From contig PCYA01000009.1 of NCBI GenBank assembly GCA_002762795.1, positions 5,059 through 69,058 on the forward strand: DNA of 64,000 nt, in the 5' to 3' direction. The notes below the pieces were generated by a model that saw only the letters and a list, made by a program, of their open reading frames with translations, was not told the DNA's origin and did not search any database. How positions within the stretch are numbered: the stretch's first letter is position 1; the number at the start of each line of letters is the position of its first letter. The stretch comes from Candidatus Woesearchaeota archaeon CG10_big_fil_rev_8_21_14_0_10_37_12. GTDB lineage: Archaea; Nanobdellota; Nanobdellia; Woesearchaeales; ARS49. The position numbers were made by a program, and so were the translations under genes. Below are positions 29,333-46,787 of the stretch, piece after piece.

Positions 29333-29399
29333 ATTATTTCTTTTACCAGCATTTCCTTTCTTGGAAACATTTAAATAACTTTTTCTTTTCTAACAACTG

Positions 29400-30026: not shown

Positions 30027-30031
30027 AGAAT

Positions 30032-30868: not shown

Positions 30869-32013
30869 TTTTCTTTAACTACATATTCAATAGCATCCTT
30901 AAATCCTTTTACCATTTTATCATAATCATTCCATCTTTCAAACGTCTTACGAGCTTCTTTACGCATAAAAATATTATTTTTTAATGTGCTTTGAATAGCA
31001 TTTGAGATTGCGCTCACATCACGCTCTTTAACAAGAAAACCATTTTTTCCATTTTTTATCATATCATAACCAGCAGCAACAGCAGTTGTTGATACAATAG
31101 GGATGCCAAGACTTAGCGCCTCATTTATAGCTAACCCCCAACTTTCATTCACAACATTATTTTCATACAATGTACGTGAGGGAAGCACAAAAACATCTGC
31201 AAGCAAGTAATGCTCTTTTACCTCACTATGCGGAACACTTCCAATAAACACATAATTTTTCAAGCCAATATTCTTTGCGAGCTTTTTACAATGCGCTTCC
31301 CAGCCACAATCAGGACCGCCAATAATTAGAATTGCGTCTGGATTGGATTTTTCAATTTTTGCAAACGCGCGAATTAAATAATCAAGCCCCTTATATTTTA
31401 TGATGCGTCCTAAATACAAAACAATTTTTTTGTTCTTCAAATTATATTTTTTCTTTAATTCTGCAATTTTTTGACTGTCTGTTTTTTTCTTTAAAAGATC
31501 AACTGCACAATTATTCGCAATAAACACTTTTTTTGGCTTTGCACCAAATGATACATAGAACTCTTTTGCTTTACTTCCTGCAGCAATACATGCATCAGCG
31601 TGCTTAACTATAAATTTTGCATAAAGCTTTGCAATTCTTGCACCAAAAGTTCTAGGCCACTCCCAAGTCTCATCCCACAGAATTAATTTTTTACCAGTTA
31701 TTTTTGCAATTAAAAAAGAAACGTGAGTTGCAAAACTTGCCAGACCACTTGTAATGATTACATCGTGTTTTCTCTTAAACAACCATTTTATTATGCTGGG
31801 AGAAAAATCCCCTTTATATCCTATTATATTGTAACTTCTTAAATCACAATATCTCCACTCTTTTGAAGAAGGATATTGTTTACTCCAACCTCCTCCATGA
31901 GTAAAATAAAAAACAGTGTTGTATGCTTTACTTAATTTATCAAATAAAGGAACCCTATACGATCTTGTTTCCGAATGTATGATTGCAATGTTTGGCTTAT
32001 TTTGTTTTTTCAT
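30865..32013 (-). CDS. GT4 (GT-B) glycosyltransferase
   Basis: C-terminal FVLPSRTLYE...ESWGLAINEALSLGIPIV (EX7E-type). Confidence 0.75.
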   Translation of the reverse strand: MKKQNKPNIAIIHSETRSYRVPLFDKLSKAYNTVFYFTHGGGWSKQYPSSKEWRYCDLRSYNIIGYKGDFSPSIIKWLFKRKHDVIITSGLASFATHVSFLIAKITGKKLILWDETWEWPRTFGARIAKLYAKFIVKHADACIAAGSKAKEFYVSFGAKPKKVFIANNCAVDLLKKKTDSQKIAELKKKYNLKNKKIVLYLGRIIKYKGLDYLIRAFAKIEKSNPDAILIIGGPDCGWEAHCKKLAKNIGLKNYVFIGSVPHSEVKEHYLLADVFVLPSRTLYENNVVNESWGLAINEALSLGIPIVSTTAVAAGYDMIKNGKNGFLVKERDVSAISNAIQSTLKNNIFMRKEARKTFERWNDYDKMVKGFKDAIEYVVKEK

Positions 32014-32837
32014 TTTTTCTCAAAAAGAAACTCGTTACAACCTAAAGAACGGACTTCTTTTATTTTTATTTTTCTAAAACCTAGTTTTCCAACAAAATTG
32101 ACTATTTCATTTACACTAGCATACTCGTATGGATAACCACCAAGCCAATCTTCTACATCAGTAAAAAAATTCATCCCTCTATTGCTCTTGTAATTTCTGA
32201 TGTATTTAACTGGATTAAACCCTTTTGCAGTTATTCCTACTAACAGATACGCTATGTAAAGCATATACAGAATGAGACGGACAGGACGAGAAGAATGACT
32301 ATACATTCTCTTTATCTTTTGCCAAAGTTTGGAAGTTCCTTCTAACTTATATTTTGTATTTTTATTATATATCGCAATATAAAACAAACCATTTTCTCTT
32401 ATTAAACTTGCAGCATTTTCAATAGCAACCCACATGTTTCCAGTATGATGCAAAACACCCCAACTATACACTATGTCAAACTTACCAAGACTATCAAGAA
32501 ACTCTTTATTCAATGCAGACCCAATTTTCACTTTCCAATTTTTAAGTTTATACTTCTTCTTTAACGCTTCTGCACAAGCAACTGAATGACGATCAATATC
32601 AACACTGGTAACCTTCGCATCAAGCAAACCCGCTGCAAGTGAAAACAAACCACTTCCACAACCAATATCTAAAAAACTCTTGTCATCAATACTCATGCCT
32701 AAAAAATCATGCAGAGATTTTTTTGCTTCATCAACACTTTTCTTATCAAGCTTTTTAATAAATTTCTGCCAATTTTTACCAAAACTAAATAACTCATCAT
32801 ATCTCTGTTCATACAACTCTTTTTTATCTTGACTCAT
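32010..32837 (-). CDS. SAM-dependent methyltransferase
   Basis: FLDIGCGSGLFSL. Confidence 0.7.
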   Translation of the reverse strand: MSQDKKELYEQRYDELFSFGKNWQKFIKKLDKKSVDEAKKSLHDFLGMSIDDKSFLDIGCGSGLFSLAAGLLDAKVTSVDIDRHSVACAEALKKKYKLKNWKVKIGSALNKEFLDSLGKFDIVYSWGVLHHTGNMWVAIENAASLIRENGLFYIAIYNKNTKYKLEGTSKLWQKIKRMYSHSSRPVRLILYMLYIAYLLVGITAKGFNPVKYIRNYKSNRGMNFFTDVEDWLGGYPYEYASVNEIVNFVGKLGFRKIKIKEVRSLGCNEFLFEKK

Positions 32838-34653
32838 TCTTTAACACCCATAATTCATACCACTTAAACAACAACAACAACCTGATCTTGTAATTTTGAT
32901 GAATTCTGCTTTCACTATCATTTATTTTTTTATAAAACGAATACCAATTTTCATCCAAGATACAGTGTTTATACAATTCTTCCAGCGCAACGTTTATTTT
33001 GTTTTTTATTGACTTCTTTTTTGTCCATTCTACAATAGGCGGCGTGAACCCTTGTTTTCCTCTAAACACAATAGCCTTTGGAACAAGTCCTTTAATCAGA
33101 TCTCTCATCAATATCTTGGTCTTAAAAATGTTGCACTTCCACTTGACAGGAATCCGCGCTGAAAAATCAATAAACCTGTAATCAAGAAACGGACTTCTTA
33201 CTTCCAAAGAATTTGCCATGGATGCTCTATCAACTTTTACTAAAAAATTATCTGCTAACGTGTTATAAAACAAATCATATTTTATCATCGCTTCAGTAAA
33301 ATTACCTTTTGAAATTTTTAGCACTTCTTCCATCTTTTCTTTTGACCAATCTTTAAACACTTTCGGCTTATAAACAAAAGCAGAACCAACTTCTGAATAA
33401 AACTGACTGTCAGGAATAAAACTCATTCTGAGAGCTTCACTCAACCTGCCAAAAAAAGACATATCATTCTTTTTTGGCAAAATTGAATAAAAAAACTTTC
33501 TCACACTCTTTGGAATTTCTTTAATCACGCTGAATTGTGCAGCAATCTGATGCGTAGGATAACCACCAAAAACTTCATCACCACCATCACCGCTTAAGAC
33601 AACAGTGACGTGCTCCCTTGCAAGCCTGCTCACATCGTACGTAGGGAAATTAGAAAAATCACCAAAAGGCTCGTCATAAAAATAAGATATCTTATTAAGC
33701 AGCTTAATAAAATCTTTTTCTGTAAAATATTTATGATGATGTCTTGTCTTAAACTTCTTTTTAACTATATTAACATACTTTGTTTCATCATAAGATCCTT
33801 CAAAACCTATGGAAAAAGTATGCAATTTTTTAAGATCAACAAACTTTGACATAGTAGCAACAACAGATGAGCTATCAAGCCCCCCTGATAAAAAAGCACC
33901 GACAGGAACATCAGCAATTAAACGCAATCGCGTGGCATCATTGAGAAGAAATGATCCCTCGTCAATTAATTTTTTCTTATCATACTGCGGGTTGTACTCT
34001 GGCAAGTGATAATATATTTTTTTCATAATCTTCTTTGTTTTCAAATTAAACACAAGACATTCTCTCGGCATTACTTTAGAAATATTCTTATAAATAGACT
34101 GTGGACTTGGAATAAATCCCATGCTTAAATGAAAATCTACTGCACCTTTATTAATATCTTTTTTAATATCGTGTAACAAAATAGCTTTCAACTCACTCGC
34201 AAAAATAAACTTTTTTTTATCCCAATAATAAAATAAAGGTTTCTTGCCAAGACGATCACGACACAAAATCAATTCATTCTTTTTTTTATCATAAATACAT
34301 AAAGCCCACATTCCATTGAATTTGTTGAAACAATCCATTCCCCATTTTTTGTAAGCATATAGAATAACTTCAGTATCAGATTCTGATTGAAAATTAAACT
34401 CTTTTAGCTCTTCACGTAATTCCTGAAAATTATAAATTTCTCCGTTAAAAACCATAACAAGATCTTCTTCGCTTGTTGTCATTGGCTGTTTTCCTTTCTC
34501 TGAAAGATCAATAATACTTAATCTTCTATGACCTAACGAAATCGCATGATCGCTATAATACCCCTCTTGATCCGGGCCTCTATGTATTAAAGAGTTGCCC
34601 ATCTTTTTAACTAGTTCTTTATCATTCCAATTAAATCCGGCTATTCCGCACAT
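32824..34653 (-). CDS. asnB: Asparagine synthase (glutamine-hydrolysing)-family amidotransferase
   Basis: N-terminal MCGIAGF nucleophile and SGGLDSS PP-loop. Confidence 0.8.
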   Translation of the reverse strand: MCGIAGFNWNDKELVKKMGNSLIHRGPDQEGYYSDHAISLGHRRLSIIDLSEKGKQPMTTSEEDLVMVFNGEIYNFQELREELKEFNFQSESDTEVILYAYKKWGMDCFNKFNGMWALCIYDKKKNELILCRDRLGKKPLFYYWDKKKFIFASELKAILLHDIKKDINKGAVDFHLSMGFIPSPQSIYKNISKVMPRECLVFNLKTKKIMKKIYYHLPEYNPQYDKKKLIDEGSFLLNDATRLRLIADVPVGAFLSGGLDSSSVVATMSKFVDLKKLHTFSIGFEGSYDETKYVNIVKKKFKTRHHHKYFTEKDFIKLLNKISYFYDEPFGDFSNFPTYDVSRLAREHVTVVLSGDGGDEVFGGYPTHQIAAQFSVIKEIPKSVRKFFYSILPKKNDMSFFGRLSEALRMSFIPDSQFYSEVGSAFVYKPKVFKDWSKEKMEEVLKISKGNFTEAMIKYDLFYNTLADNFLVKVDRASMANSLEVRSPFLDYRFIDFSARIPVKWKCNIFKTKILMRDLIKGLVPKAIVFRGKQGFTPPIVEWTKKKSIKNKINVALEELYKHCILDENWYSFYKKINDSESRIHQNYKIRLLLLFKWYELWVLKNESR

Positions 34654-35732
34654 AGTTTTGTGTACAACTCCTCTGTTTCTTTAATCACACGTGTTATATT
34701 ATGATCTTTTTTTACTTTTTTATATGCATTGTTAACAAGTTTCTCTGTAAATTTTTTATCTGTTAAAACCTTCTTAATCCCTGCTGCAAACTTTCTTGGG
34801 TTCCTCGGAGGAATAAGCAAACCATCAAAATTATTTTTAACAAGTTCTCTTGTTTCAGGAATACTTGTTGTTACAACAGGTTTTTTTGTCGCCATGTAAA
34901 CAAGAACAGCATTTGGTTGTCCCTCATAAAACGTAGACAAAACTCCAGCATCCCCTGCTTTTGTAACTTCAATAAAATTCCTAATGAAACCCAGAAAATG
35001 AACTCGATTATCAATACCGAGCGACTTTGCCAGCAGTTCATATTCTTTCTGAAGCGGTCCTCCTCCAATGATAATCAAATGCACATTTTTTAACAAAGTT
35101 AAAGCTTTGAACAATGTGGGATAGTCTTTTTGACGTCTCATATTAGCACTACTAATAATCACTTTGGCTTTTTGAGGAATGCCCAATTTTTTTCTTAACA
35201 TGTGATCTGCAGAAATTTTATCTATCTTCTCAATTTCTAATCCATTCTTTATGCACACTATTTTTTTATTATTTATTCTGCATACATTTATCATAAATTT
35301 AGTAACACTTTCAGAATTCGTCGTGTAAATATCAACAAGAAACCTCGTAAACCTATCAACCCAATTATGCCATGGATGTTCAATCTGCTTTATGCGAATA
35401 GCAGAAATAACTTTTGCACTGGTGCCAATAGCAGCAAACCTGGCAACAATATTAGCATGAAACAAATAAGCATGAACAACAGCAACATTATACTTTTTTA
35501 TCAATCTATGAACTTTTACAACAGCTAACGGGAATTTTAATGTAGACTTTATGTTTAACACCTGAGTACTACACAATACCTCAAACTCTTTTTTCAACAT
35601 CCCCCCTACAAAACTCACAACAACCATTCTGAACTTATTTTTATTTACTCCCTGAACGGTTCTTAATAGCATCTCCTCAGCACCACCAGGGTTTAAACCA
35701 GTGATGATGTTAAGAACGTTTATTTTTCTCAT
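34641..35732 (-). CDS. GT4 glycosyltransferase
   Basis: STFYEGQPNAVLVYMATKKPVV acceptor-site region. Confidence 0.65.
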   Translation of the reverse strand: MRKINVLNIITGLNPGGAEEMLLRTVQGVNKNKFRMVVVSFVGGMLKKEFEVLCSTQVLNIKSTLKFPLAVVKVHRLIKKYNVAVVHAYLFHANIVARFAAIGTSAKVISAIRIKQIEHPWHNWVDRFTRFLVDIYTTNSESVTKFMINVCRINNKKIVCIKNGLEIEKIDKISADHMLRKKLGIPQKAKVIISSANMRRQKDYPTLFKALTLLKNVHLIIIGGGPLQKEYELLAKSLGIDNRVHFLGFIRNFIEVTKAGDAGVLSTFYEGQPNAVLVYMATKKPVVTTSIPETRELVKNNFDGLLIPPRNPRKFAAGIKKVLTDKKFTEKLVNNAYKKVKKDHNITRVIKETEELYTKLCAE

Positions 35733-36865
35733 GCTTTAACAAGACCTCGCAATTCTAGCATCATTTTTTCATACACGACTGACCAGTCAAGTTCTTTCTC
35801 TGCGAAACTTCTCGCTTTTTTTCCAAACTGAGTTATTTTTTCAGGATGAGACGTCAAAAATTTCAGCTTACTGCAAAATTTGTCCACATTAAAATTTTCA
35901 ATTACAAAGCCAGTATTCAAAGGAATAATATTAGACACATCACCAACATCAAAAGCAACTGAAGGCAAACCTGAAGCAGAAGCTTCAAGAACTACACGAG
36001 GACTACCTTCACCAAAAGAAGGCAACACAAGAACATCACTATTTGACAGATACTCATGAACTTTATTTTCATCAACTCTTCCGATTAATTTGAGATTATT
36101 GAACTTTAATGATAACCCTTCAACAAAACCCATTAAAGGACCATCACCAACAACTAAAAACTCCCAATCAGAAGGAATAGCCCCCAAAATATCTTTGAAA
36201 AGGTTCACACCTTTATTCTCTACAAGACGACCAACAAACACAACTCTTTTATTCAGTTTTTCCCTAACTTTAAACTTCTCAACATACAAAGCATTCTTGA
36301 TATATTTTATACGCTTCTTATTAACACCATACTTTTTTTCAATTAACTCTATTGTAGGACCTGAATTTGAAATTATCAAATCAACATGCTTAAACAAAAA
36401 CCAAGCTAAAGTATTATCATAAACTGTCTTTGCAACACGTAACGGAAAACTCAAACTTTTCTTTATTTCAGGTTCAAGACTGCCACGATACATGAGCACC
36501 ACAGGATTTTTAATTAAACCAATCCATTTGTAAAACGCAACACGCACATTCATGTCAAACATATAACTGTAAAGTAAAATAACATCCACATCTTTTAATC
36601 TGTTCCTTATCAAGTTATACAAACCCCACACAAAAGGAGTTCTTCCAAGAATGCGTGTTATAACAGGAACTTGAATAATTGAAAGATTTTTTTTCTTTAA
36701 CTCTTTAGTTTTTGGAACAACAATTGTAACTTCATTTGCTCGTTTGGCAAGCTCTTTTGCAAACTGATAACAAGATATTGTGAAACCGCTAACATTTGGA
36801 AACCAGTCAGGACAAAGAATAAGAACCTTCATTTTCTCACCAAAGTACCAGGAAACATCCTCCAA
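35729..36865 (-). CDS. GT4 glycosyltransferase
   Basis: VLPSFGEGSPRVVLEASASGLPSV. Confidence 0.7.
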   Translation of the reverse strand: MEDVSWYFGEKMKVLILCPDWFPNVSGFTISCYQFAKELAKRANEVTIVVPKTKELKKKNLSIIQVPVITRILGRTPFVWGLYNLIRNRLKDVDVILLYSYMFDMNVRVAFYKWIGLIKNPVVLMYRGSLEPEIKKSLSFPLRVAKTVYDNTLAWFLFKHVDLIISNSGPTIELIEKKYGVNKKRIKYIKNALYVEKFKVREKLNKRVVFVGRLVENKGVNLFKDILGAIPSDWEFLVVGDGPLMGFVEGLSLKFNNLKLIGRVDENKVHEYLSNSDVLVLPSFGEGSPRVVLEASASGLPSVAFDVGDVSNIIPLNTGFVIENFNVDKFCSKLKFLTSHPEKITQFGKKARSFAEKELDWSVVYEKMMLELRGLVKA

Positions 36866-37521
36866 TAAATAGTCTTAAAAAAAATTTTAAACCCATCAAA
36901 CCAGTTTGTTCCTTTAGTTTTTTTAGGATAAATAGTTCTAATAGGCACTTCACAATACTTTACTTTATTCAAACCGATTTTTGCAACACTTTCAGACTCC
37001 ATTGCATAATCATAAGACTTCCAGCGAGTTTTTTGATATCCTTTCTTAGAAAACGCGCGAAAACCTGATTGCGTATCATGAACTTTAACTCCAAAAAAAA
37101 TACGCGCAAGACGAGTTAATATCCAATTTCCAGACTTTGACAAAAAAGGCATTTCTTTCAGGTTTCTCCTGCTTACAACAACATCATAACCCCAACTCAA
37201 CTTTTCAACAAAACTACCGATATCATTCACATCATGCTGATCATCTCCATCCAGTGTTATCACATATTTAGTATTTTTAAAAGCGTTGTCAAAGCCAATT
37301 CTCAGAGCTTTGCCTTTTCCCTGATTTCTTGACAAACGCAAAACCTCAGCACCAGCATTTTTTGCTTCTGAACTTGTATTATCTGAAGAACCATCATCAA
37401 TAACCAAAACATTGAAACCTTTTTCTTTCACAGCATTAACTACTTTGAAAATGTGCTTTTCCTCATTAAATGCAGGAATCACTACTTTAATAGCAAATTT
37501 TTTGATTTCGCGCTTACTCAT
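36829..37521 (-). CDS. GT2 glycosyltransferase
   Basis: VIPAFNEE...IDDGSSD...LDGDDQHD. Confidence 0.75.
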   Translation of the reverse strand: MSKREIKKFAIKVVIPAFNEEKHIFKVVNAVKEKGFNVLVIDDGSSDNTSSEAKNAGAEVLRLSRNQGKGKALRIGFDNAFKNTKYVITLDGDDQHDVNDIGSFVEKLSWGYDVVVSRRNLKEMPFLSKSGNWILTRLARIFFGVKVHDTQSGFRAFSKKGYQKTRWKSYDYAMESESVAKIGLNKVKYCEVPIRTIYPKKTKGTNWFDGFKIFFKTIYWRMFPGTLVRK

Positions 37522-37581: not shown

Positions 37582-40500
37582 TCATCTTATGCTTTCAACT
37601 CTGATTTTAAACTTCAGAGTTTTATTACCAAGCGGATGTGCATTTGGATCAACTCCATACCCTTCTTTAGGAGGAACAGTTATCGTTTTAATTTCTCCCG
37701 GCATCATCCCTTCTATTCTTTTTTCAAACCCAGGAATTAACTGATCATTTCCTATAATAAAAGCAAGAGGTTTTGTTTCAAATGAATCAAAATCTGAATC
37801 AGAAGAAACATTCTTGCTCCGCCAATCAACAATACTGCTGTCAAACACACCATCATCAGTCCAACCAATGTAATTCAAAGCTACTTGAGCTCCAGATATT
37901 ACAGATGTTTTAGGCAACAACCCCTGAGGAACATATGCATCTTTCCCTTCCCAATCAACTTTCCAGACATAAACAGGGCCGCCAAATAACTGATTATCTC
38001 TAGCAAACAAATCAAAATGCTTTAAACCAAGACCATTCATATAAAATAATCGTGTAAACATGCTATCTGCAAGCGCATCATTTGCAGCAATAGCACTCAT
38101 TCCATTTTCAACAGGCCAAACAATAAATGTTAATTGATCATTACCTTCACTTGATGTAAACACCTGCTTTTCTCCCTTTTCATTATATATAATAACTTTT
38201 TTAGCAAGAGCTTTTCCAGAATCAACAGACAGTTCTCCTCTACCATTCGTAATATCAATCTGCAAACTACCACAAACCAACAAAGATCCTGAAACTTTAC
38301 AACCTTGAACATCATGTGTTACATATCCAGGATATCCACTTATCCAACCATTTGCAGAATCTTCAGACGTCAAAGCTTTTGCTTCTTTGTAAATCTCCTT
38401 CGATTTTTCTTCAGTCCAATTAAAACGATTCATCATTTTTGCAACAGCATCTTTTTCAGGTAAATGTCTCCACTCAAGCCAAACTTCAGCTTTTTTGAAA
38501 TCCCACATACCAAAATGAGACCAAACACCAGCCTTGCCAATCATATCAGGACTAACAATAAAATAATTTTCAGGAGGATCACAATGAGTAAACTGAAGTA
38601 TATCCTCAGACAGGCCTGCATCCCGGAGAGTATCTCTTGCAGAAGACTTATTCTGCATAATAATAGTCTTAATAATTTCAACTGTTTTAAAAGAATCATT
38701 TAATTTTTCAAAAATCATTCCTTGCGCAGTATTACTTCCGCAATCATTCAATCTTAAAATACCAATCGCTTCTCTCTCATCTTCTGTTTGCAACACTCGC
38801 CCAATCCAATGAGCCTGAGGAGATGTTTGTGAAGCACCATCAAAAGTAACCTGCCTATCAGCAATATACTTGAAATGATGACCAAAATCCCACCAAGAAG
38901 TTATGATTGCATCAGGAGCACTCTCTTCTTTTATTTTTGTCAACACAGCCCACCAAGCATCATTAACCATAGGGATACTTCCACGAACAGAACTATACGA
39001 TTGTGCAGCCATGTTGCTCCCACCAAGTGCAGGATTAATAATCATCAAACTAAAAATACCCAAAAGCACCACGCCAGTAATATATTTGTGAATATGCAAC
39101 TGTCTTTTTCCAAAATCTGACAAATACTTGTAACCAAATCCTGCAGCAGCACCAAACGCTATTGCCACAGCAGGACCAAGAAGCAAAGTAAACCGCGCAC
39201 CCTTCAAAGAAGCATACACTGAACCAACAAACCACAACGCCAAAATCAATGAATAAACAAACTCACGCTTATTTTTCTGATCTCGCTTAGAAAAACTCAA
39301 CAAAATGCCAAAGCATGCAACAACAAAAACCAACATGCCTCCAACAGAACTAATTATCATTGAAAAAGAAGCGGGATTTAATTCTGCAACAGTTGTTAGT
39401 ACGTTTGGCCAGATAGTTCCTCCTGCAGCAGATTTAATCGTTCTGAAATTGAGTGCATTATAAAAAATACCATTCCAAAATGCACGAACACCAATTGTAA
39501 ATAAAGACACTACAAACCCACTAACAAATATACACAAAGCAGCTATAAAATGTTTTTTTAAATGAGTCTCTTCCAAAAGAGAAACAAATCCATGCCTGAA
39601 CTTTTTCCTATTCAAAACAATTTCAATTATAATTACAAGACCAACAGCTCCAAAAATAATGTCTGCGAAAAAAAACCAGCCACTCCAAAAACTTGCGAAC
39701 AAACTAATAGCAACACCTGTTCCGCACGCAAACATAATTTGCTTTTTCCAAGACTCTGCAAAAAAAGTCTCAAACAATAAAAACAATATTAACGCTGGAA
39801 AAAACACAACATACATATCAGTATCAATATGCCCCCAAGGCGTACGAGTCATTATTGCAGGAATCAAACCAAGAACTATAACTGCAAAGAAACCGCTTAG
39901 CTTACCACCAAGCCTATATCCAGCAAAGAAAATAAAAATCAACGACAAAAAAATCAGAAAAATACCTATGTAAGCTGCCGAATCCATAAAAGGAACATTT
40001 TTGTTAACCAAAGAATTGACTTTGTAAAATCCTGCAATAACATAACTATGCCAGCTATTGTCAACACCCGTGCCAACAGGAGCAGACATATGATTATCCC
40101 AAGGAACACCATCATGAAGTTCATCATAATTGTGTCCAGTATTCAAAACATTTCGCGCAAGCCTCAAATAATGATAAGGATCAATATCAGGCATGTATGA
40201 ATATAACTTTCCATTTTCTTCATAAGAAAAATGATCACGCACCTGCTTTGCCAACCTCCCTTTTTCTACATCTAGAGTGGCTTTGTTTTCCTGCTGAAAT
40301 TTAAGCTTCAAATCATTAATCACTTTTTGCCTATTCGCTTCAGGCAAATTAGGATACCTTTGCTGTGCAATAGAAGCAACCTGCTGCTGGATAAAATTAT
40401 CTACATTTGAAGAAGCAACATTTTCTGCTATATCCAAATTTTTCGTTTGCATACGCATCCAAATACTGCCCCAAGGAGCATTGCCTTCACTAGGAACAAA

Positions 40501-40599
40501 CTGCAATGCTAATACGAGAAGTAACGTGAACAACACAGCGTGTTTTTGGACAAATGAAACTGTAGTCTTTGCTTTTGCCCAAATCGCATCCTTTTCCAT
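37582..40599 (-). CDS. aglB: Oligosaccharyltransferase AglB/STT3 homolog fused to a C-terminal FKBP-type peptidyl-prolyl cis-trans isomerase domain
   Basis: 13 or more TM helices and the WWDFGHHF (WWDYG) motif encoded at about 38883-38897. The last 110 aa are ALNYIGWTDDGVFDSS...PLAFIIGNDQLIPGFEKRIEGMMPGEIKTITVPPKEGYG, which is FKBP. Confidence 0.8.
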   Translation of the reverse strand: MEKDAIWAKAKTTVSFVQKHAVLFTLLLVLALQFVPSEGNAPWGSIWMRMQTKNLDIAENVASSNVDNFIQQQVASIAQQRYPNLPEANRQKVINDLKLKFQQENKATLDVEKGRLAKQVRDHFSYEENGKLYSYMPDIDPYHYLRLARNVLNTGHNYDELHDGVPWDNHMSAPVGTGVDNSWHSYVIAGFYKVNSLVNKNVPFMDSAAYIGIFLIFLSLIFIFFAGYRLGGKLSGFFAVIVLGLIPAIMTRTPWGHIDTDMYVVFFPALILFLLFETFFAESWKKQIMFACGTGVAISLFASFWSGWFFFADIIFGAVGLVIIIEIVLNRKKFRHGFVSLLEETHLKKHFIAALCIFVSGFVVSLFTIGVRAFWNGIFYNALNFRTIKSAAGGTIWPNVLTTVAELNPASFSMIISSVGGMLVFVVACFGILLSFSKRDQKNKREFVYSLILALWFVGSVYASLKGARFTLLLGPAVAIAFGAAAGFGYKYLSDFGKRQLHIHKYITGVVLLGIFSLMIINPALGGSNMAAQSYSSVRGSIPMVNDAWWAVLTKIKEESAPDAIITSWWDFGHHFKYIADRQVTFDGASQTSPQAHWIGRVLQTEDEREAIGILRLNDCGSNTAQGMIFEKLNDSFKTVEIIKTIIMQNKSSARDTLRDAGLSEDILQFTHCDPPENYFIVSPDMIGKAGVWSHFGMWDFKKAEVWLEWRHLPEKDAVAKMMNRFNWTEEKSKEIYKEAKALTSEDSANGWISGYPGYVTHDVQGCKVSGSLLVCGSLQIDITNGRGELSVDSGKALAKKVIIYNEKGEKQVFTSSEGNDQLTFIVWPVENGMSAIAANDALADSMFTRLFYMNGLGLKHFDLFARDNQLFGGPVYVWKVDWEGKDAYVPQGLLPKTSVISGAQVALNYIGWTDDGVFDSSIVDWRSKNVSSDSDFDSFETKPLAFIIGNDQLIPGFEKRIEGMMPGEIKTITVPPKEGYGVDPNAHPLGNKTLKFKIRVESIR

Positions 40600-40727
40600 T
40601 GTTTTTTCACAACTAAAATAACACCTTAAAAAACTTCCTATGGAGCTCGTCGTTACTTGCCAATAGTTACATTAACGAAAACTTTAAATAGTTGTTCTAT
40701 CGAACCGTTTATACAGGGGTAAGAAAT

Positions 40728-41912
40728 ATGAAGAAAATCCTTTTAACAACAGCAATTGCGGCAGCAGCACCAGTAGCAGCAGAAGCAAACAATGAACTAG
40801 ACACAAGAGCAGACGATATGAGTGGCGTCATCTACGCAGGAACGCAAGTTGAAAATGAAGCAGAAAGAGGCGTGCTTTCCTTGGACTTACGAGGCAACTT
40901 AGGAGAAAAAGGTGATTATCACCCAACACTTCGCGCACTTAGCGGAAGAGAAACAACAGAAATGGGAATTGATACTACTTTAGGAGCAGTACAACTAGGA
41001 TTAGGATTTGACTTCTTATTCTCACAAGGAACTCCTTTACTTCACTTAGAACCTTTTGTCGGCGCAGATTACTCGCGCACAGAAGGAGCATTCAATGAAG
41101 GACCAAACAAAGGAAATGAAATTGAATTAAGCCAATACGCAACAAACTACGGACTTAACCTTGGATTTAGAATTCCACAATTAGGAACAAGACTTGGCTT
41201 AACAGCATACGCAGGAAACGGAAGATATGATGTGGAAGAAAGAGTACGTGCAATGTTGCTCTCTGGAAGAGAACAAGACGGCAACTTTATTGTTGAAGGC
41301 ATTGTTCCTGCGTTTTTATCCGGAAATAAACAAGGAAACAGATCACAAATTGTTCTCGGCGGATCACTCACACAAATGATTCTTGGCACACCATCAAAAC
41401 CAATACGCACACGCGACGGTGATTTGATAGAACAGCAAGGAAATATTCTTTTTGCACGACCAGAAGATTGTGATTTCAACAGCAAAGACCCAACAAGACA
41501 ACTTCGTGCAACAGGAGCACGAACATTTGAACTTGACTTGTACGCAAACGGCCTTTACAGAGAATCAAGAAACGGCGGATTATTTGTTGATACGCTTCAA
41601 GGTGCACAAGCAGGACTTGTAGGAATATTCAACTTAAGAGATTATATTTTGGAAGACGGCAAAGTTGTACAAGAAGGAACAGCAATAGGATTAATGCCTT
41701 ACGCAAGATTCCAAAATTTAATGACGACTGTTCCTGGAGGAGCCAAGTTCCGTAAACAACTCATTGATGTTGGAGTACGAGGACTTGTTGAATACGCATT
41801 CGGCGGAAAACGAGGAATGACTTTAGGAGCCTATATCGATGGCGCGCACAGAAGCGACAGCGAGAAAAATGACGGTCCAATCGTAGAAGGGGGCATACAA
41901 TTATCATTTTAG
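40728..41912 (+). CDS. Secreted hypothetical protein with beta-rich, porin-like features
   Basis: Signal peptide MKKILLTTAIAAAAPVAAEA. The alternating-hydrophobic C-terminus ends in ...IQLSF. The ATG at 40728 follows a GGGG SD. The ORF table uses an upstream TTG. Confidence 0.4.
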   Translation: MKKILLTTAIAAAAPVAAEANNELDTRADDMSGVIYAGTQVENEAERGVLSLDLRGNLGEKGDYHPTLRALSGRETTEMGIDTTLGAVQLGLGFDFLFSQGTPLLHLEPFVGADYSRTEGAFNEGPNKGNEIELSQYATNYGLNLGFRIPQLGTRLGLTAYAGNGRYDVEERVRAMLLSGREQDGNFIVEGIVPAFLSGNKQGNRSQIVLGGSLTQMILGTPSKPIRTRDGDLIEQQGNILFARPEDCDFNSKDPTRQLRATGARTFELDLYANGLYRESRNGGLFVDTLQGAQAGLVGIFNLRDYILEDGKVVQEGTAIGLMPYARFQNLMTTVPGGAKFRKQLIDVGVRGLVEYAFGGKRGMTLGAYIDGAHRSDSEKNDGPIVEGGIQLSF

Positions 41913-41977
41913 TAAATCTTAAATATGAGTGCCACTCTCAAGTGGTCAACAACAAACGATAACGGGGGAAACAAACC

Positions 41978-42982
41978 ATGCAAGGGAAATATCTTACAAC
42001 AACAGCAATTGCATTAGCTGCACCACTAACAGGATGTGTTATTGGAGAAGAAGTAACTAGAGAAGGCGTACCAGAAGCTATTGCGCCAGTAAACGCAACA
42101 ACAAATGCACCAGAACAACAAAGAAACACCCTTGCAACAAACACTGATTATCGTGCACGATTACTTGCAGTTGGAAATAGACTGGACGAAATTGCCAGCG
42201 ACAAAATAGCAAACGGACAACCGAGAATATACACAAGCCCAAGACAAAGCGAAGACGAACTAAAACAACTTCTTGACACAAAAAAAGAACTTGAAGCAAT
42301 ACAAGAAGGCTTTGAAAATCAAAAAAATAACGACGATGCGTTAGGGGCATTAAGAACTGCTTACGCGACAAGACTTGAAGGATACTTAAGCACGCTTGCA
42401 AGTGACAAAGAACAAATCAAAGGACATTTGATTGTAGAATTAAACCCAGACCAAGCAGGAAGAGACATGGTTTACGGTACACGAGCAGGAAACAGACTAA
42501 CATTAGAAGGATCACTTGCAGATCATGTAGGATCATTTGGCGGAACAGAAGGAGTAGTATATGACCGAGACCAAGCACTTGAAAAACTTGCACGAGCAGA
42601 ATTTGGATACGCTGCACAACCAGGCGAAGCACTAGGCCCAGCAAGACTGCAAGAAATAGCAAGCCACGCAATGGAAGTCACACCAGACAATTGGGAAAAA
42701 GTTGCAGATTACATTCCAGCAATAGGAATCAGAGCAGGAAATGAAGTAATGACCAAAAGCAAACTTAAGAAATTAATTGATCATCAAAGAGTTCAATCAA
42801 TCGGCATTGTGTACACACATAACGTGCCAGAAGCTGTTCAACAGAATGATCAACAACTTCAAGGTCAACAAGACCAGAATGGCGATCAAGGCGCAGGAAA
42901 TAATGCCTCAGGTAACCAAGGCAACAATGGCGGCACTCCAGAAGATCCTGCAGCAGATGCAGCATTGGACAATATTGAGTAA
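41978..42982 (+). CDS. Putative lipoprotein (lipobox LTGC), secreted, with a Q/N/G-rich C-terminus
   Basis: MQGKYLTTTAIALAAPLTG|C. Confidence 0.45.
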   Translation: MQGKYLTTTAIALAAPLTGCVIGEEVTREGVPEAIAPVNATTNAPEQQRNTLATNTDYRARLLAVGNRLDEIASDKIANGQPRIYTSPRQSEDELKQLLDTKKELEAIQEGFENQKNNDDALGALRTAYATRLEGYLSTLASDKEQIKGHLIVELNPDQAGRDMVYGTRAGNRLTLEGSLADHVGSFGGTEGVVYDRDQALEKLARAEFGYAAQPGEALGPARLQEIASHAMEVTPDNWEKVADYIPAIGIRAGNEVMTKSKLKKLIDHQRVQSIGIVYTHNVPEAVQQNDQQLQGQQDQNGDQGAGNNASGNQGNNGGTPEDPAADAALDNIE

Positions 42983-43022
42983 TTTTTTTATTTTATCCAA
43001 GTAACATAAAAAGCTGATATAC

Positions 43023-45482
43023 ATGAACCAAAAAATACTCACAACATTAATCGTATTCTTACTAGCAATAACACCAGCAACAGCAGACATGTTCGGCGGA
43101 CAATTTGCAGGCGGACAAGGAATTGGCTCTGGACAAATCGCAGGCGGACAAGGCATAGGATCAGGACAGCTTGCAGGCGGACAAGGAATCGGAGCTGGAC
43201 AACTAGCAGGCGGATTTGGAATTGGCGGACAATTAGCAAGTGGACAAGGCATAGGATCAGGAATGACCGGACAAATGCCAAGCAGCAACTTTGTCACACA
43301 AAACAGCATACAAAACACAAACACATTCACCACACAAAACCTCAACAACAACTTGTTAAACAACTTTGAAACAAGAACAGACACACCACGCACAACAACA
43401 CAAACACTTCAACAAATAACCACAACTGGAACAACGCTGCCAAGAATAACAAGCTCACCAGTCACAACAGCGCGAGTAAACTTCAGATATCACTATCAAA
43501 TCATTGCAACACAACCAAACAACCAACCATTAGCATACTTAATTCTAAACGGACCAAACGGAATGAGCGTAACAAACACAGGACGAGTAAGCTGGACACC
43601 AAACCAAACAGGACAATATAACATACAAATAGGAGTAAAAACACAAGGAACAAACTTAGTAACACCACAATCATACACAATCACAGTCACAGAAAACCAA
43701 GCACCAGAAATCACAAGCCAACCAACACTAACAGCAATTGTTGGACAAGAATACGTTTACCAGATAACAGCAACAGATGCTGACGGAGACAGAACAGGAT
43801 CATTACCAGTGCAATCACCACAAGGAACAAACTTCAACATACAAACACAAACACTAACCTGGACACCAACAGCAAATCAAGTTGGACAACACACATTCAA
43901 AATATTAGTGGGAGACAGCTTTACAACAACAGAACAACAATTCACAGTAACAGTCAGATCAAGTTCATCTAATAACAACGGATCAAATGGTGGTGCAGAT
44001 GGTGGTTCAGACAACACAAACAGAGCACCAGTCATCACAAGTACACCAATAACAAACGCAGCAGCAGGAACAAGATACACATACGATGTTGAGGCAACTG
44101 ATGCAGACAATAACTTACTTACCTATGCACTCTTAAGCTACCCACAAAGCATGCGCATCAACTTCCAAACAGGAGTAATTACATGGATACCGACAACAGC
44201 ACAAGCAGGAAACAATAACGTTCGCGTTGTTGTAAGCGATGGCAGAACATCAACAACACAAGACTTCATAATCAACGTAGCAGCAAATGCCTTGCCACAA
44301 TTTGTGTCAAGCCCAATAAACAATGCGATTGTTAACCAACCATACACATACAATGTTGATGCAATTGATCCAAACAATGACAATATTGTGTACGCACTAC
44401 CAACAAAACCAACAGGAATGACAATCAATCCGCTTACAGGAATCATAACATGGATACCAACAAGTACAGGATTCTTCAACGTCACAGTAAGCGCAACAGA
44501 CGGAGGACAACCAGTACTACAACTATTCACAATTCATGTTCAATCACAAAACACAATCAACAACCATCCGCCAGTCATCACATCAACACCAATCAGAACA
44601 GCAACAGCAGGAACACAGTATTTGTATGTAGTACTTGCAGATGATGCAGACGGAGACACAAAAACATTTAACGTAAACGGACCTTCTGGAATGACAATCA
44701 ACAGCTTAGGAGTTATCAGCTGGACACCAAACAATACACAAACAGGAAATCATCCAGTAAGTGTTTCAGTAACAGACGGAACAGACACAGCATCACAAAC
44801 ATACACGCTAACAGTACAAACTCAAAGTCAAGGGTCTGCCAGTTGGCAAACAATTCCAACAGTAACAATCAATCAAGGAGCAACCTCAGGAACCATTATT
44901 TTAAGCAACGTTCTAGACAGATGCACAGATCCAGCAAACCCATTTGTAAATGTACAAATACTAAGCAACACAGCAGACTTACAATTCACAATTGACAGTA
45001 GAAATGATCTAAAACTCATATACATACATCCAAACGTTGTTGGAACACGACAAGTAAGATTGGCATGCAACGGTGTAGCAACAAGCTTTAACCTAAACAT
45101 ACAAGCAACAAACAACCAAAACAACAACGGAAACAATAATGGAAATACAGGAAGCAACAGTAATTCTGAAATCACAGTAAACTCAATCATCATACCAAAC
45201 GCGTATGATATAAGTCCAGGAAGCAGAATACCAATTACAGTAAGCGTAAGAAAAACAACAGGACCAAGAATAGAAGACGTACAAATAACAGCAACAATAC
45301 AAACACTTGGTGCACGAGCAACAAGCAGTGTTTTTGACATCGAAGGAAGCACATCTGTCAGGAGAACAGTATTCCTCCAAATTCCAGGAAGTGCTGATCC
45401 AGGCATATACACTGTGCGCATATCCATCGATGGAAGAAATGGCGTGCATGAGCAACTACACAGACAAATAACAATACGATAA
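43023..45482 (+). CDS. Large secreted surface protein or adhesin with a GGQGIGSGQ(I/L)A repeat tract and 5 or more cadherin-like/Ig-like (He_PIG/CADG-type) domains
   Basis: Signal peptide. Repeated (Y/L)TY(D/N)V(E/D)A(T/I)D(A/P)D(G/N) motifs. T/N/Q-rich. Confidence 0.55.
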   Translation: MNQKILTTLIVFLLAITPATADMFGGQFAGGQGIGSGQIAGGQGIGSGQLAGGQGIGAGQLAGGFGIGGQLASGQGIGSGMTGQMPSSNFVTQNSIQNTNTFTTQNLNNNLLNNFETRTDTPRTTTQTLQQITTTGTTLPRITSSPVTTARVNFRYHYQIIATQPNNQPLAYLILNGPNGMSVTNTGRVSWTPNQTGQYNIQIGVKTQGTNLVTPQSYTITVTENQAPEITSQPTLTAIVGQEYVYQITATDADGDRTGSLPVQSPQGTNFNIQTQTLTWTPTANQVGQHTFKILVGDSFTTTEQQFTVTVRSSSSNNNGSNGGADGGSDNTNRAPVITSTPITNAAAGTRYTYDVEATDADNNLLTYALLSYPQSMRINFQTGVITWIPTTAQAGNNNVRVVVSDGRTSTTQDFIINVAANALPQFVSSPINNAIVNQPYTYNVDAIDPNNDNIVYALPTKPTGMTINPLTGIITWIPTSTGFFNVTVSATDGGQPVLQLFTIHVQSQNTINNHPPVITSTPIRTATAGTQYLYVVLADDADGDTKTFNVNGPSGMTINSLGVISWTPNNTQTGNHPVSVSVTDGTDTASQTYTLTVQTQSQGSASWQTIPTVTINQGATSGTIILSNVLDRCTDPANPFVNVQILSNTADLQFTIDSRNDLKLIYIHPNVVGTRQVRLACNGVATSFNLNIQATNNQNNNGNNNGNTGSNSNSEITVNSIIIPNAYDISPGSRIPITVSVRKTTGPRIEDVQITATIQTLGARATSSVFDIEGSTSVRRTVFLQIPGSADPGIYTVRISIDGRNGVHEQLHRQITIR

Positions 45483-45568
45483 CTTTAAATAATAACGCTT
45501 ACTTCTAAGTGGTAATATTTGGCTATCACTTTTGGATGGTCAAAACACAAAGTCATGGGGGGAAATGA

Positions 45569-46786
45569 ATGAATTTGCGTAGCATAAGTATCAGTATAAT
45601 CTTCTTACTATGCATAGCAACAGTCACTGCACTCCCTATAAGTATAGACGAAGCAAAAATAGATGACATCCCTGTAAATGAAAACTCTGTTAACAGGCTT
45701 TCTTTAGAACGAGGAGAAGTTTACGAATTATTGCTCAGATTTACAGCATTTCAAGATGTAGATGATCTGCAAGTTCTCGCATTTGTCTCAGGCTTCGAAT
45801 TTGACGACATAGAACCAATAGCCGACAGAACACCTGTATTTGATGCAGACGCAGGCGTAACATACGTCAAAAGATTAGCAATACCAATATCACGAAACGC
45901 AGAAGAAGACGATTACAAAGTAAGAGTCATATTCTCAGACAGATCAGGAGACGAACTAACAGCAAACTACAACATCAAAATAGACGTACCAAGACACGCA
46001 CTACAAATTCTTGACGTTATTTTAAACCCATCAACAAGCGTACGTGCAGGAAGCTCACTATTAGCAAGAGTACGAGTTAAAAACCAAGGAGAAAGAGATG
46101 CAGAAGATGTTCGTGTAAGTGTGAACATACCAGGACTAGGAATTGGAGACACAACATACATCAATGAAATTGAAAGAAATGATGAACAAGCACAATCACA
46201 AGAATTATTCTTACGCATACCAAGATGCGCACAACCAGGATCATACGACGTTCTTATCACAGCAGAATACTTGCAAGGGTACAGAGCAGTACAAGACAGA
46301 AAAACAATCACAGTCACACAAGATGAAACATGCGAAGAATCAAATGAAGCACCAATAACAATAACACTGGGAAATAATGCACAACAAACACTCCCCGGAC
46401 AACCAGTAACATACCCAATCACCATAACAAACATAGGAAAAACCAGCAGAACTTTTGTTATCAACACACCTCCAACAGACTGGGCAGATGTCAGCGTAAG
46501 CCCAACAAATACACTTGTTGTGCAACCAAGACAAACACAAACAACATTCATAAGCGTTGAGCCAAATGAAGAATCAACATCAGGAAGCCACACAATCACA
46601 GCAGCAGTGACATCAAATAATTACCGAGAAGAACTAAACATAATCACAATGGTATTAGAACAACCAAGAAAAACAGGAATTTTTGAAACTGTTCTCATAA
46701 TCCTTGTTATTTTATTGGTTATAATTGGCATAATTATTGGCATAGCACACGCAAGAAGCAAAGAAAATAAACAGGAATACTATTAA
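45569..46786 (+). CDS. Secreted surface protein (CARDB/S-layer-domain-like) with a C-terminal TM anchor
   Basis: Signal peptide, then beta-rich domains, then ...IILVILLVIIGIIIGIAHARSK. Confidence 0.4.
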   Translation: MNLRSISISIIFLLCIATVTALPISIDEAKIDDIPVNENSVNRLSLERGEVYELLLRFTAFQDVDDLQVLAFVSGFEFDDIEPIADRTPVFDADAGVTYVKRLAIPISRNAEEDDYKVRVIFSDRSGDELTANYNIKIDVPRHALQILDVILNPSTSVRAGSSLLARVRVKNQGERDAEDVRVSVNIPGLGIGDTTYINEIERNDEQAQSQELFLRIPRCAQPGSYDVLITAEYLQGYRAVQDRKTITVTQDETCEESNEAPITITLGNNAQQTLPGQPVTYPITITNIGKTSRTFVINTPPTDWADVSVSPTNTLVVQPRQTQTTFISVEPNEESTSGSHTITAAVTSNNYREELNIITMVLEQPRKTGIFETVLIILVILLVIIGIIIGIAHARSKENKQEYY

Positions 46787-46787
46787 T

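Follow-up and report, generated by a model that had tools for sequence, protein, structure and literature searches.

A woesearchaeal AglB oligosaccharyltransferase with a C-terminal FKBP-type prolyl isomerase domain

The aglB-FKBP gene and its neighborhood

The window analyzed here, a stretch of 64,000 nucleotides, contains a gene on the minus strand (37582..40599, stop codon included) that consists of a single open reading frame (ORF) with an ATG start and zero internal stops, and encodes a protein of 1005 amino acids. The identical protein is present in NCBI on two contigs (COV18_02155, Candidatus Woesearchaeota archaeon CG10 metagenome-assembled genome). Pfam recognizes in this protein, in the N to C direction, the STT3 domain (PF02516; residues 133-515, 86.2 bits against a cut-off of 24.5), the STT3-PglB_core domain (PF21436; residues 565-702, 36.5 bits against a cut-off of 23) and the FKBP_C domain (residues 902-1001, 56 bits, E 5e-15, cut-off 21.1, profile positions 7-93 of 94). 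The AlphaFold2 (AF2) model of the full protein has a pLDDT of 91 and a pTM of 0.83. A sequence-only reading had interpreted this ORF as an AglB/STT3 oligosaccharyltransferase (OST) with a WWDFG motif and a C-terminal FKBP domain, quoting the peptides VALNYIGWTDDGVFDSS, PLAFIIGNDQLIPGFEKRIEGMMPGEIKTITVPPKEGYG, KFKIRV and WWDFG; all four are found in the ORF, the Pfam domains and their order agree with that interpretation, and the coordinates given for the domain (37582-37930) correspond to residues 890-1005 plus the stop codon. No second AglB or peptidyl-prolyl isomerase (PPIase) gene was found in the window.

The only, and general, ground for suspecting that two separate genes were joined by a frameshift error in sequencing, a chimera in the assembly or faulty gene calling is that the source is a metagenome-assembled genome; no specific support for such an artifact was found. 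Against it stand the uninterrupted ORF, the identical protein on two contigs, the recurrence of the same one-ORF junction in 53 independent species-representative genomes and in 97 protein clusters, and the fact that the FKBP segment is the best conserved part of the protein. We accordingly give an artifact virtually no credence and reject a frameshift, chimera or stop between the AglB and FKBP parts.

Downstream of aglB, Pfam identifies a tight co-directional cluster (28385..37521, minus strand) with the gene order GT2, GT4, GT4, asparagine-synthase-like amidotransferase, methyltransferase, GT4 and CDP-alcohol phosphatidyltransferase, ending in a further methyltransferase gene past a gap with opposite-strand ORFs. 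The ORF ends overlap or abut from 30032 to 37521, and the cluster is probably an N-glycan assembly operon headed by aglB. Close to it, on the plus strand, are genes for a flippase-like Polysacc_synt protein (26906-28399) and a GT2 glycosyltransferase (25506-26525). In a divergent plus-strand cluster (40692..49964), all five ORFs have N-termini that resemble signal peptides, and three of them contain Ig-like, CARDB or He_PIG domains. From their context, these are candidate surface proteins and might be AglB substrates. Sequon enrichment was rejected as a mark of these neighbors as substrates, given that their sequon density (0-0.6 per 100 amino acids) equals that of the other sampled proteins of the window.

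Features of the oligosaccharyltransferase and FKBP parts

A short Lys-rich cytoplasmic N-terminus is followed by the first transmembrane helix (TM1; residues 12-36, 40492..40566, from hydropathy, with AF2 helices at 3-32) and by a lineage-specific helical insert of about 100 amino acids in external loop 1 (EL1; residues 37-135, 40195..40491, from the alignment and AF2). In the AF2 model, this insert forms four helices spanning residues 45-123, and it carries a near-invariant YPNLP motif with invariant P83 and P86. The insert has no Pfam match, and neither a profile search against PDB sequences nor a fold search turned up a relative. The idea that it could be a SurA/PrsA/trigger-factor-like chaperone module of a split foldase found no support, the best E value of the profile search, 0.14, being to unrelated proteins.

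The STT3 membrane domain (Pfam residues 133-515, 39055..40203) contains the DxD motif of EL1, D138-I-D140 (40180-40188), as well as H-I-D259-T-D261 (39817-39831) and T-V-A-E406 (39382-39393), which align, respectively, with the DTD motif of PglB and with its TIME motif (the TIxE/SVSE Glu of EL5). The extracytoplasmic AglB C-terminal domain (residues 529-885, 37945..39015, delimited by Pfam, alignment, hydropathy and Foldseek) contains WWDFG 569-573 (38881-38895), aligned to WWDYG of PglB, and, as a candidate for the DK (DxxK) or MI (MxxI) motif of the Ser/Thr pocket, D685-M-I-G-K689 (DMIGK 685-689, 38533-38547), where D685, M686 and K689 are invariant and the spacing is DxxxK rather than DxxK. 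In 60 aligned sequences, D140, D259, D261 and E406 are invariant, as are W569, W570, D571 and G573 of the WWDxG motif; the ectodomain cysteines 620, 673, 767 and 776 are all invariant as well. Judged by these motifs, the AglB/STT3 oligosaccharyltransferase (GT-C, CAZy GT66) encoded here is complete and equipped for catalysis.

The end of the last TM helix lies close to residue 525, no hydrophobic segment is detected by hydropathy past residue 528, and the AF2 helices are consistent with 13 TMs. The WWDxG domain is periplasmic or external in PglB and AglB enzymes of known structure, and by analogy with these structures an N-in/C-out orientation is predicted. The FKBP domain would thus be located outside the cell because it is contiguous with the external AglB domain and no membrane helix intervenes. 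Pfam, alignment, hydropathy, AF2 and Foldseek together bear out the extracytoplasmic location originally proposed.

Foldseek searches with the AF2 model retrieved PglB (E 2.6e-23, target-normalized TM 0.65-0.68) and also human STT3, yeast STT3 and A. fulgidus AglB. The solved AglB of A. fulgidus (3WAK/5GMY/7E9S) and PglB of C. lari (3RCE/5OGL/6GXC) share with the query the 13 predicted TMs, the external C-terminal domain and the DxD, DxD/DTD, TxxE and WWDxG motifs (Foldseek E 1e-23 to 1e-13). However, none of the solved AglB, PglB or STT3 enzymes contains a PPIase domain, whereas the query lineage adds both the EL1 insert and the C-terminal FKBP, with an identity to the solved enzymes of only 11-16%. 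Matches to the NCBIfam PglB equivalog NF050801 (45.7 bits, cut-off 1300) and the archaeosortase-A-associated STT3 TIGR04154 (38.5 bits, cut-off 450) fall far below the respective cut-offs. By its sequence, this AglB belongs to a separate Woesearchaeota/Nanoarchaeia lineage.

The FKBP-type PPIase domain comprises residues 886-1005 (37585..37944), with the Pfam core at 902-1001 (37597-37896), and is supported by Pfam, PDB sequence matches and Foldseek. With the last 127 amino acids as the query, 104 solved FKBPs match at E<=0.01, and superposition of the modeled FKBP part onto FKBP13/FKBP2 and FKBP12 gives a target-normalized TM of 0.72-0.80 at 25-28% identity. Both the linker and the domain are modeled with a pLDDT of 86-95. 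The predicted pocket is formed by Y910, F919, D920, L954, I955, F958, Y981, H988 and F997. Depending on the position, 45-54 of the 54 fused homologues retain the equivalents of FKBP12 Y26, F36, D37, I56, W59 (as Phe), Y82, H87 and F99, with individual counts of 54 for Y26, 52 each for F36 and D37, 51 for V55 (V/L/M/I), 53 for I56 (I/V), 50 for Phe at the W59 position, 53 for Y82 and 54 for F99; the positions of R42, F46 and E54 vary. Mean identity is also highest in the FKBP domain, at 56%, compared with 50% in the ectodomain and 44% in the TM core.

A family-specific insert of about 20 amino acids at the 'bulge' position (approximately 922-944) is conserved along with the fusion and contains the sequon N930-V-S (37804..37812); 43 of the 54 fused homologues have a sequon at this column. 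A second sequon, N992-K-T (37618..37626), precedes the last FKBP strand and is kept in 52 of the 54, but it overlaps the general FKBP motif N-A-T-L, so that its conservation may be structural. The IF/flap domain of the SlyD type is absent, with only about 13 residues between G-Y981-G and the last strand, and the SlyD and MtFKBP17 matches stop ahead of the flap; the 'bulge' insert is the sole additional element of the domain. Given that this chaperone insert is missing, the chaperone capacity of the FKBP domain alone may be low. Taken at the level of sequence, this is a short-type FKBP with an intact predicted prolyl-peptide pocket, continuous with the AglB ectodomain.

Woesearchaeota are presumed episymbionts, so that a surface FKBP could target host or matrix proteins, similarly to the Mip-type FKBPs of bacterial pathogens. 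The Mip and BpML1 FKBPs are indeed among the best sequence matches, and the lineage lies within DPANN (Nanobdellati). Nevertheless, a role as a host-interaction factor appears highly improbable, considering that the domain lacks a Mip-like dimerization or long-helix module and is tethered close to a membrane enzyme, whereas the locus shows no sign of host targeting and the gene belongs to a probable glycan-assembly operon.

FKBP and parvulin domains across the AglB family

The AglB-FKBP architecture is present in 97 of the 264 retrieved family proteins, and in 53 of the best 80 loci from species-representative genomes a single stop-to-stop ORF spans both the AglB core and the FKBP domain, joined at the same position. 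Among the 264 proteins and the 80 best loci, all carriers of the fusion are DPANN Woesearchaeota/Nanoarchaeia. The fusion is ancient within this lineage and is subject to strong purifying selection. The suggestion that this architecture was not a recognized one therefore holds in part: the fusion is common within one archaeal lineage, although no description of an AglB-FKBP fusion was found in the full-text literature, a coverage that leaves out most subscription journals. The sequence databases already hold fusion proteins with matches to each Pfam domain, and NCBI names some of them for the FKBP alone. In a 2021 survey of archaeal PPIases (PMC8530231), neither 'transmembrane' nor DPANN, Woesearchaeota or STT3 is mentioned.

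In place of FKBP, 12 of the 264 family members carry a parvulin domain (PF00639/PF13616) at this C-terminal junction. Matches to Rotamase or Rotamase_3 that exceed the gathering score (59-112 bits) were obtained for P0085, P0089, P0091, P0097, P0101, P0163, P0235, P0250 and P0256, and lie within the last ~170 residues of these AglB homologues, mostly within the last ~110; locus L071 also bears an AglB-parvulin gene. Most of the parvulin-fused members retain the HIL.../GYH motifs, and in some, Glu replaces the second catalytic His. Among the 264 proteins, no folded C-terminal domain other than FKBP and parvulin was found; cyclophilin and thioredoxin were considered and rejected, the other tails of at least 45 amino acids being acidic or Asn/Ser/Thr-rich low-complexity sequences.

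The PPIase domain is missing in 155 of the 264 family members. A gene-fission counterpart was rejected because no stand-alone FKBP or parvulin gene lies within +/-6 kb of the FKBP-less aglB in 26 loci. Jointly, these observations indicate that the coupling is dispensable. The one additional FKBP match, at locus L079, comes from the end of a tandem AglB-FKBP paralogue located upstream.

This distribution bears on the possibility that the domain is a general extracellular foldase of the Gram-positive PrsA type for which the AglB C-terminus is a mere membrane anchor near the Sec exit, glycosylation being unlinked. The occurrence of FKBP and parvulin at one position is what would be expected if any surface PPIase sufficed, the domain is missing from many family members, and surface or periplasmic Mip-type PPIases are among the FKBP fold matches. 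However, the presence of two unrelated PPIase folds at the same AglB junction also suggests that AglB may be the preferred partner, the linker is short and confidently modeled rather than a long flexible tether, and conservation of the fusion extends to the family-specific insert of the FKBP domain. On balance, an anchor function alone seems rather unlikely, albeit worth keeping in mind.

Glycosylation and folding of exported proteins

Several known systems place a folding catalyst close to an OST or to exported chains. In Ost3p/Ost6p and TUSC3/MagT1, a folding-catalyst domain located on the OST binds unfolded substrate and improves site occupancy. The concept is shared with AglB-FKBP, and yeast Ost6p-containing OST (7OCI) is among the fold matches, but these separate eukaryotic subunits have a thioredoxin fold with disulfide chemistry and no homology to FKBP or parvulin. 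PrsA of Gram-positive bacteria and the periplasmic SurA, PpiD and FkpA are extracytoplasmic ATP-independent PPIase-chaperones for Sec-exported unfolded proteins, PrsA being membrane-tethered; they differ from AglB-FKBP in having a lipid or single-TM anchor, their own chaperone domain and no attached glycosyltransferase, and the EL1 insert of the query has no SurA/PrsA-like fold. Trigger factor, SlyD and archaeal FKBP17/FKBP26 each combine a PPIase with a module that binds unfolded proteins as substrates, as proposed here. The query shares with them the 'bulge' insertion and Phe at the W59 position, the usual residue there in active SlyD, trigger-factor and archaeal FKBPs, and its matches include 1IX5 and 3PR9/3PRB. 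In contrast, these proteins are cytoplasmic and contain the IF/flap insert, whereas the query has no flap and AglB itself would be the putative substrate-binding module.

A spatial parallel is human FKBP11, which was seen in 2025 at the SEC61-TRAP-OST-A translocon (PDB 9N9J; PMC12804085) and, like the domain described here, is a lumenal or external FKBP fold beside the STT3 catalytic subunit where exported nascent chains emerge. In that complex CCDC134 buries the FKBP11 pocket, and the study disfavors an isomerase role toward nascent chains, reading FKBP11 instead as an adaptor that restrains GRP94 glycosylation (PMC12804085). Proximity to an OST is thus no proof of catalysis. FKBP11 differs in being a separate single-pass protein that is recruited non-covalently in a ribosome-dependent manner, whereas the FKBP of the query is archaeal and covalently fused, with a pocket that, as predicted, is apparently free.

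By analogy with FKBP11, the FKBP fold of AglB could be a non-catalytic interaction module that recruits a partner (S-layer, Sec or other) or gates the acceptor site of AglB. The variability of R42, F46 and E54, the replacement of W59 by Phe and, in some parvulin-fused members, the Glu that takes the position of the second catalytic His are compatible with such an adaptor or regulator. Yet the core of the pocket (the Y26, F36, D37, I56, Y82 and F99 equivalents) is nearly invariant, Phe at the W59 position is usual in the active FKBPs of the three groups named above, and the swap for parvulin, a different fold with only the catalytic activity in common, fits poorly with fold-specific docking, which makes this explanation decidedly improbable.

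We lean, if only somewhat, toward a role of the FKBP domain as a tethered extracellular prolyl isomerase or holdase that would work on the unfolded exported chains glycosylated by AglB. The coupling of glycosylation with proline isomerization that had been suggested from the sequence is an idea strengthened by the conserved pocket and by the parvulin domains of relatives at the same position, which themselves suggest a physical coupling between glycosylation and folding of exported proteins. We also count in favor of this role the two conserved sequons inside the FKBP domain and the four invariant cysteines, which are consistent with the outside location, along with the position of AglB at the head of the probable glycan-assembly operon, facing a cluster of putatively secreted Ig-domain proteins.

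In the proposed mechanism, Sec-exported chains would appear unfolded at the outer membrane face, where AglB would have to bind N-X-S/T sequons before the chain loses flexibility, and the FKBP domain, fixed at a defined place on the AglB ectodomain, would then act on the same chains. Transient binding by the FKBP could prolong sequon accessibility (holdase option), or the domain could catalyze slow Xaa-Pro isomerization, allowing faster folding once the glycan is attached (foldase option); one or both roles might apply. The peptide-binding site of AglB would supply the substrate-binding module that is missing from isolated short FKBPs. Together, these parts might constitute a minimal glycosylation-folding station in one polypeptide, suited to a small-genome DPANN cell without ATP outside the membrane.

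Because OSTs can act on a sequon only while its chain segment is unfolded or flexible, glycosylation competes with folding, a competition that eukaryotes handle via accessory subunits such as Ost3/6-type oxidoreductases. A single-chain AglB-PPIase would amount to a 'Rosetta-stone' argument that the OST and the prolyl isomerase share substrates, an argument that gains weight from the presence of PPIases of two non-homologous folds at one and the same position. We suggest, more tentatively, that prolyl isomerization may be an integral, selected step of N-glycosylation-coupled export in Woesearchaeota/Nanoarchaeia, the OST itself being a bifunctional glycosyltransferase-foldase whose PPIase module was gained on two or more occasions from unrelated folds, FKBP first and parvulin later as its in-place replacement. 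AglB-PPIase would be the first candidate extracellular protein-folding catalyst in DPANN archaea and, if the proposed role is correct, the archaeal equivalent, in covalent form, of the eukaryotic OST with its foldases (Ost3/6, TUSC3/MagT1, FKBP11). How folding and glycosylation compete kinetically, a matter of long debate, would then become testable within a single polypeptide, and AglB-PPIase would offer a compact system for studying the effect of foldase proximity on site occupancy and, perhaps, for engineering it.

Domain architecture and predicted topology of AglB-FKBP

The aglB gene (positions 37582-40599, minus strand) is an uninterrupted ORF that encodes a protein of 1005 amino acids, in which the Pfam domains STT3 (residues 133-515, 86.2 bits), STT3/PglB/AglB core (residues 565-702, 36.5 bits) and FKBP_C (residues 902-1001, 56 bits, E-value 5e-15, 87 of 94 profile positions) all score above the curated cut-offs. 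The sequence-only reading, which assigned positions 37582-37930 (residues 890-1005 and the stop codon) to an FKBP-type prolyl isomerase (PPIase), is confirmed far beyond chance: every peptide it quoted is found in the ORF and, in addition to the Pfam match, the C-terminal 127 amino acids have 104 matches among solved FKBP sequences (E<=0.01).

The protein belongs to the STT3/AglB family, of which it shows five defining features. The catalytic motifs of the oligosaccharyltransferase (OST) are complete (D138-I-D140, H-I-D259-T-D261, T-V-A-E406 and W569-W-D-F-G573), the latter three of which align with 'DTD', 'TIME' and 'WWDYG' in C. lari PglB, and D140, D259, D261, E406 and WWD are invariant across a 60-sequence alignment. 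The AlphaFold2 model derived from this alignment (mean pLDDT 91, pTM 0.83) matches PglB in Foldseek with an E-value of 2.6e-23, as well as human STT3A and STT3B, yeast Stt3 and A. fulgidus AglB. Nevertheless, identity to the solved OST enzymes is 11-16%, and the protein falls far below the NCBIfam cut-offs for PglB and for archaeosortase-associated STT3; judging by sequence, it belongs to a distinct AglB lineage. All members of this lineage contain a helical insert of approximately 90-107 amino acids with a near-invariant QYPNLP motif in external loop 1 (EL1), between TM1 and the DxD motif. A putative Ser/Thr-pocket motif, D685-M-I-G-K689, has invariant D, M and K, with a spacing unlike that of the textbook DxxK. 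Many family members possess cytoplasmic N-terminal extensions of 90-190 amino acids that are absent from the protein in the window.

The C-terminal domain is a bona fide FKBP and belongs to the short rather than the SlyD type; alignment to human FKBP12 and to the solved FKBP matches shows that the IF/flap chaperone insert is absent. The FKBP12 pocket positions Y26, F36, D37, Y82, H87 and F99 correspond to Y910, F919, D920, Y981, H988 and F997, which are conserved in 54, 52, 52, 53, 51 and 54 of the 54 fused homologues (AglB family members with a C-terminal FKBP), respectively. The hydrophobic positions V55 and I56 are represented by L954 (V/L/M/I in 51/54) and I955 (I/V in 53/54), and W59 is replaced by F958 (Phe in 50/54); SlyD, trigger factor and archaeal FKBPs usually have Phe at this position. 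FKBP is conserved better than any other part of the protein: across 52 fused homologues its identity averages 56%, compared with 50% (ectodomain), 44% (membrane core) and 42% (EL1 insert). Nearly all fused homologues share a family-specific insert of about 20 amino acids at the 'bulge' position (about 922-944), which argues for a single ancient acquisition of FKBP.

The final membrane helix is predicted at about 505-525 and, because the hydropathy profile contains no hydrophobic stretch after it, residues 529-1005 are expected to lie on one side of the membrane. FKBP is accordingly predicted to be extracytoplasmic, on the same side as the WWDxG domain, which to our knowledge is periplasmic or external in all solved PglB, AglB and STT3 structures. 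Four invariant ectodomain cysteines (C620, C673, C767 and C776) fit this location, and two N-X-S/T sequons within FKBP are consistent with it: N930 (37804-37812, minus strand; kept in 43 of the 54 fused homologues) and N992 (37618-37626, minus strand; kept in 52), the latter overlapping the generic FKBP 'NATL' motif, so that its conservation may be structural. These conserved sequons suggest that the foldase domain of AglB might itself be N-glycosylated. Both the linker (residues 891-900, pLDDT 86) and FKBP (pLDDT 88-95) are modelled confidently, suggesting a fixed rather than floppy attachment. The protein is a complete OST fused to a strongly conserved, predicted extracytoplasmic FKBP with an intact pocket.

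Distribution of the fusion and the parvulin counterpart

An identical protein is present in NCBI ('hypothetical protein COV18_02155', Candidatus Woesearchaeota archaeon (CG10_big_fil_rev...)) on two contigs, the longer of 784 kb. The whole-protein search listed 120 cluster representatives, of which 54, with identities as low as 29%, have FKBP as their last ~115 residues. An exhaustive HMMER search with residues 556-1005, covering 1.84 billion representatives, yielded 539 relatives at E<1e-30; among the best 150 of these, the alignment runs continuously through FKBP in roughly 50. When one genome per GTDB species was scanned, at least 559 relatives were detected, and in 53 of the 80 best loci a single stop-to-stop ORF encodes both the AglB core and FKBP, joined at the same position. 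Given the uninterrupted frame, the identical NCBI protein and this recurrent junction, the chance that the fusion is an artefact, with a frameshift or stop setting FKBP apart, is negligible: the fusion is real, ancient and widespread within its lineage. Record labels of the relatives are nearly all Woesearchaeota, Nanoarchaeia, Nanoarchaeota (DPANN/Nanobdellati) or plain 'archaeon'; the label 'uncultured Methanosarcinales' on many third-party assemblies is probably generic, and one relative resides on a 3.4-kb contig binned as a bacterium.

The 264 proteins pooled from both searches comprise 97 with FKBP, 12 with a parvulin-type PPIase and 155 with neither, proportions that are inflated by the FKBP-containing query. 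The parvulin domains (nine confirmed by Pfam at 59-112 bits, with a further example at locus L071) replace FKBP at the C-terminal end, mostly starting within ~10 residues of the last AglB strand. Most retain both His motifs (HIL... and GYH...). A subgroup (P0085, P0235 and P0256) has 'GYE' for 'GYH', with Glu at the second His, and a Cys-rich 'SECSD...C' variant; this subgroup may have been acquired separately or have altered catalysis. In a rough neighbor-joining tree built from the AglB core and lacking support values, the protein in the window belongs to a large FKBP clade, outside of which FKBP-bearing, parvulin-bearing and domain-less members interleave. Among the 264 proteins, C-terminal tails of at least 45 amino acids contain no other folded domain, the rest being acidic or Asn/Ser/Thr-rich low-complexity sequence. 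The presence, at one junction, of two unrelated folds that share only prolyl isomerase chemistry is the strongest comparative argument that the PPIase function itself would have been selected beside AglB.

Members lacking a PPIase (P0232, P0172, P0224, P0179, P0055 and others) often end in tails of 45-92 amino acids, either extremely acidic or with many N-x-S/T sequons, which may be self-glycosylated stalks. The recent Pfam family PF27869 is annotated (precomputed annotation) on P0050, P0062, P0063, P0064, P0069 and P0075. At locus L079, an AglB-FKBP ORF represented by its C-terminal end (L079:2-757) is directly followed by a second AglB ORF that lacks FKBP (L079:748-3657); the two are tandem paralogues, and fused and unfused forms can therefore coexist in one genome.

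Genomic context

The aglB gene is the first in a tightly packed co-directional run that continues with GT2, two GT4, an asparagine-synthase-like amidotransferase, a methyltransferase, GT4 and a CDP-alcohol phosphatidyltransferase, and ends with a second methyltransferase beyond a gap with opposite-strand ORFs. With a flippase-like gene and an additional GT2 close by, this run is a plausible N-glycan assembly locus. Five ORFs whose N-termini resemble signal peptides (40692-49964, plus strand) are transcribed divergently from aglB, and three of them contain He_PIG/Big_9, CARDB/NPCBM_assoc or FixG_C/DUF2207_C domains, Ig-like domains among them; the ORFs have a GC content of 0.40-0.42, compared with about 0.33 in the glycan operon, and their AT skew is strongly positive. 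The products may be cell-surface proteins; the sequon density of the five ORFs is not elevated, so that they add no support as AglB substrates. No second AglB or PPIase gene was found within the 64-kb window. The window also encodes an HTH_10 regulator (51894-52547, minus strand) just upstream of tRNA-Trp (CCA) (52634-52708, plus strand), the sole RNA gene found, and a type I restriction-modification system (53494-63068, plus strand) with an HsdM-like N6 methylase (53494-55515) and an HsdR-like helicase/nuclease (60135-63068).

Known systems and possible function

Solved or described AglB, PglB and STT3 enzymes do not include a PPIase-fused architecture. No AglB-PPIase fusion is described in the full-text literature searched, which covers a minority of subscription-journal papers, in a 2024 review of archaeal N-glycosylation, or in a 2021 survey of archaeal PPIases that mentions neither STT3 nor DPANN (PMC8530231). 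The impression of an unrecognised architecture thus holds for published descriptions, but the fusion is widespread within its own lineage and implicitly present in sequence databases. As far as can be told, this fusion of two well-known enzyme families, with a convergent parvulin counterpart, is undescribed.

Functionally, the nearest systems include accessory folding factors of the eukaryotic OST, such as the thioredoxin subunits Ost3/6 and TUSC3/MagT1, and the bacterial extracytoplasmic PPIase-chaperones PrsA, SurA and FkpA. That FKBP is a PrsA-like general foldase for which AglB is merely the anchor is doubtful, and that it is a host-directed, Mip-like factor is highly improbable. We lean, with slightly better than even confidence, towards coupled glycosylation and folding. 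Sec-exported chains would arrive unfolded at the external side of the membrane, where AglB requires flexible sequons; the tethered PPIase could hold these chains, giving glycosylation more time, or speed rate-limiting Xaa-Pro isomerisations once the glycan is transferred, or do both. Short FKBPs catalyse protein folding poorly unless joined to a substrate-binding module, a principle embodied in trigger factor, SlyD and engineered SlyD-FKBP12 chimeras; two such chimeras, 4ODP and 5I7Q, are among the solved FKBP matches. The peptide-binding site of AglB could serve as this module. However, most of the retrieved family members lack a PPIase and no compensating PPIase gene is found beside aglB of domain-less members (+/-6 kb, 26 loci), which counts against strict necessity.

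Another of the nearest counterparts is human FKBP11, recently visualised beside OST-A with its pocket buried, for which a non-catalytic role has been argued (PMC12804085); a similar adaptor or regulatory function of FKBP in AglB appears improbable. AglB-FKBP might tentatively be regarded, at somewhat less than even confidence, as an obligatorily bifunctional glycosylation-folding enzyme whose lineage would have acquired PPIase modules repeatedly, paralleling the accessory foldases of the eukaryotic OST.
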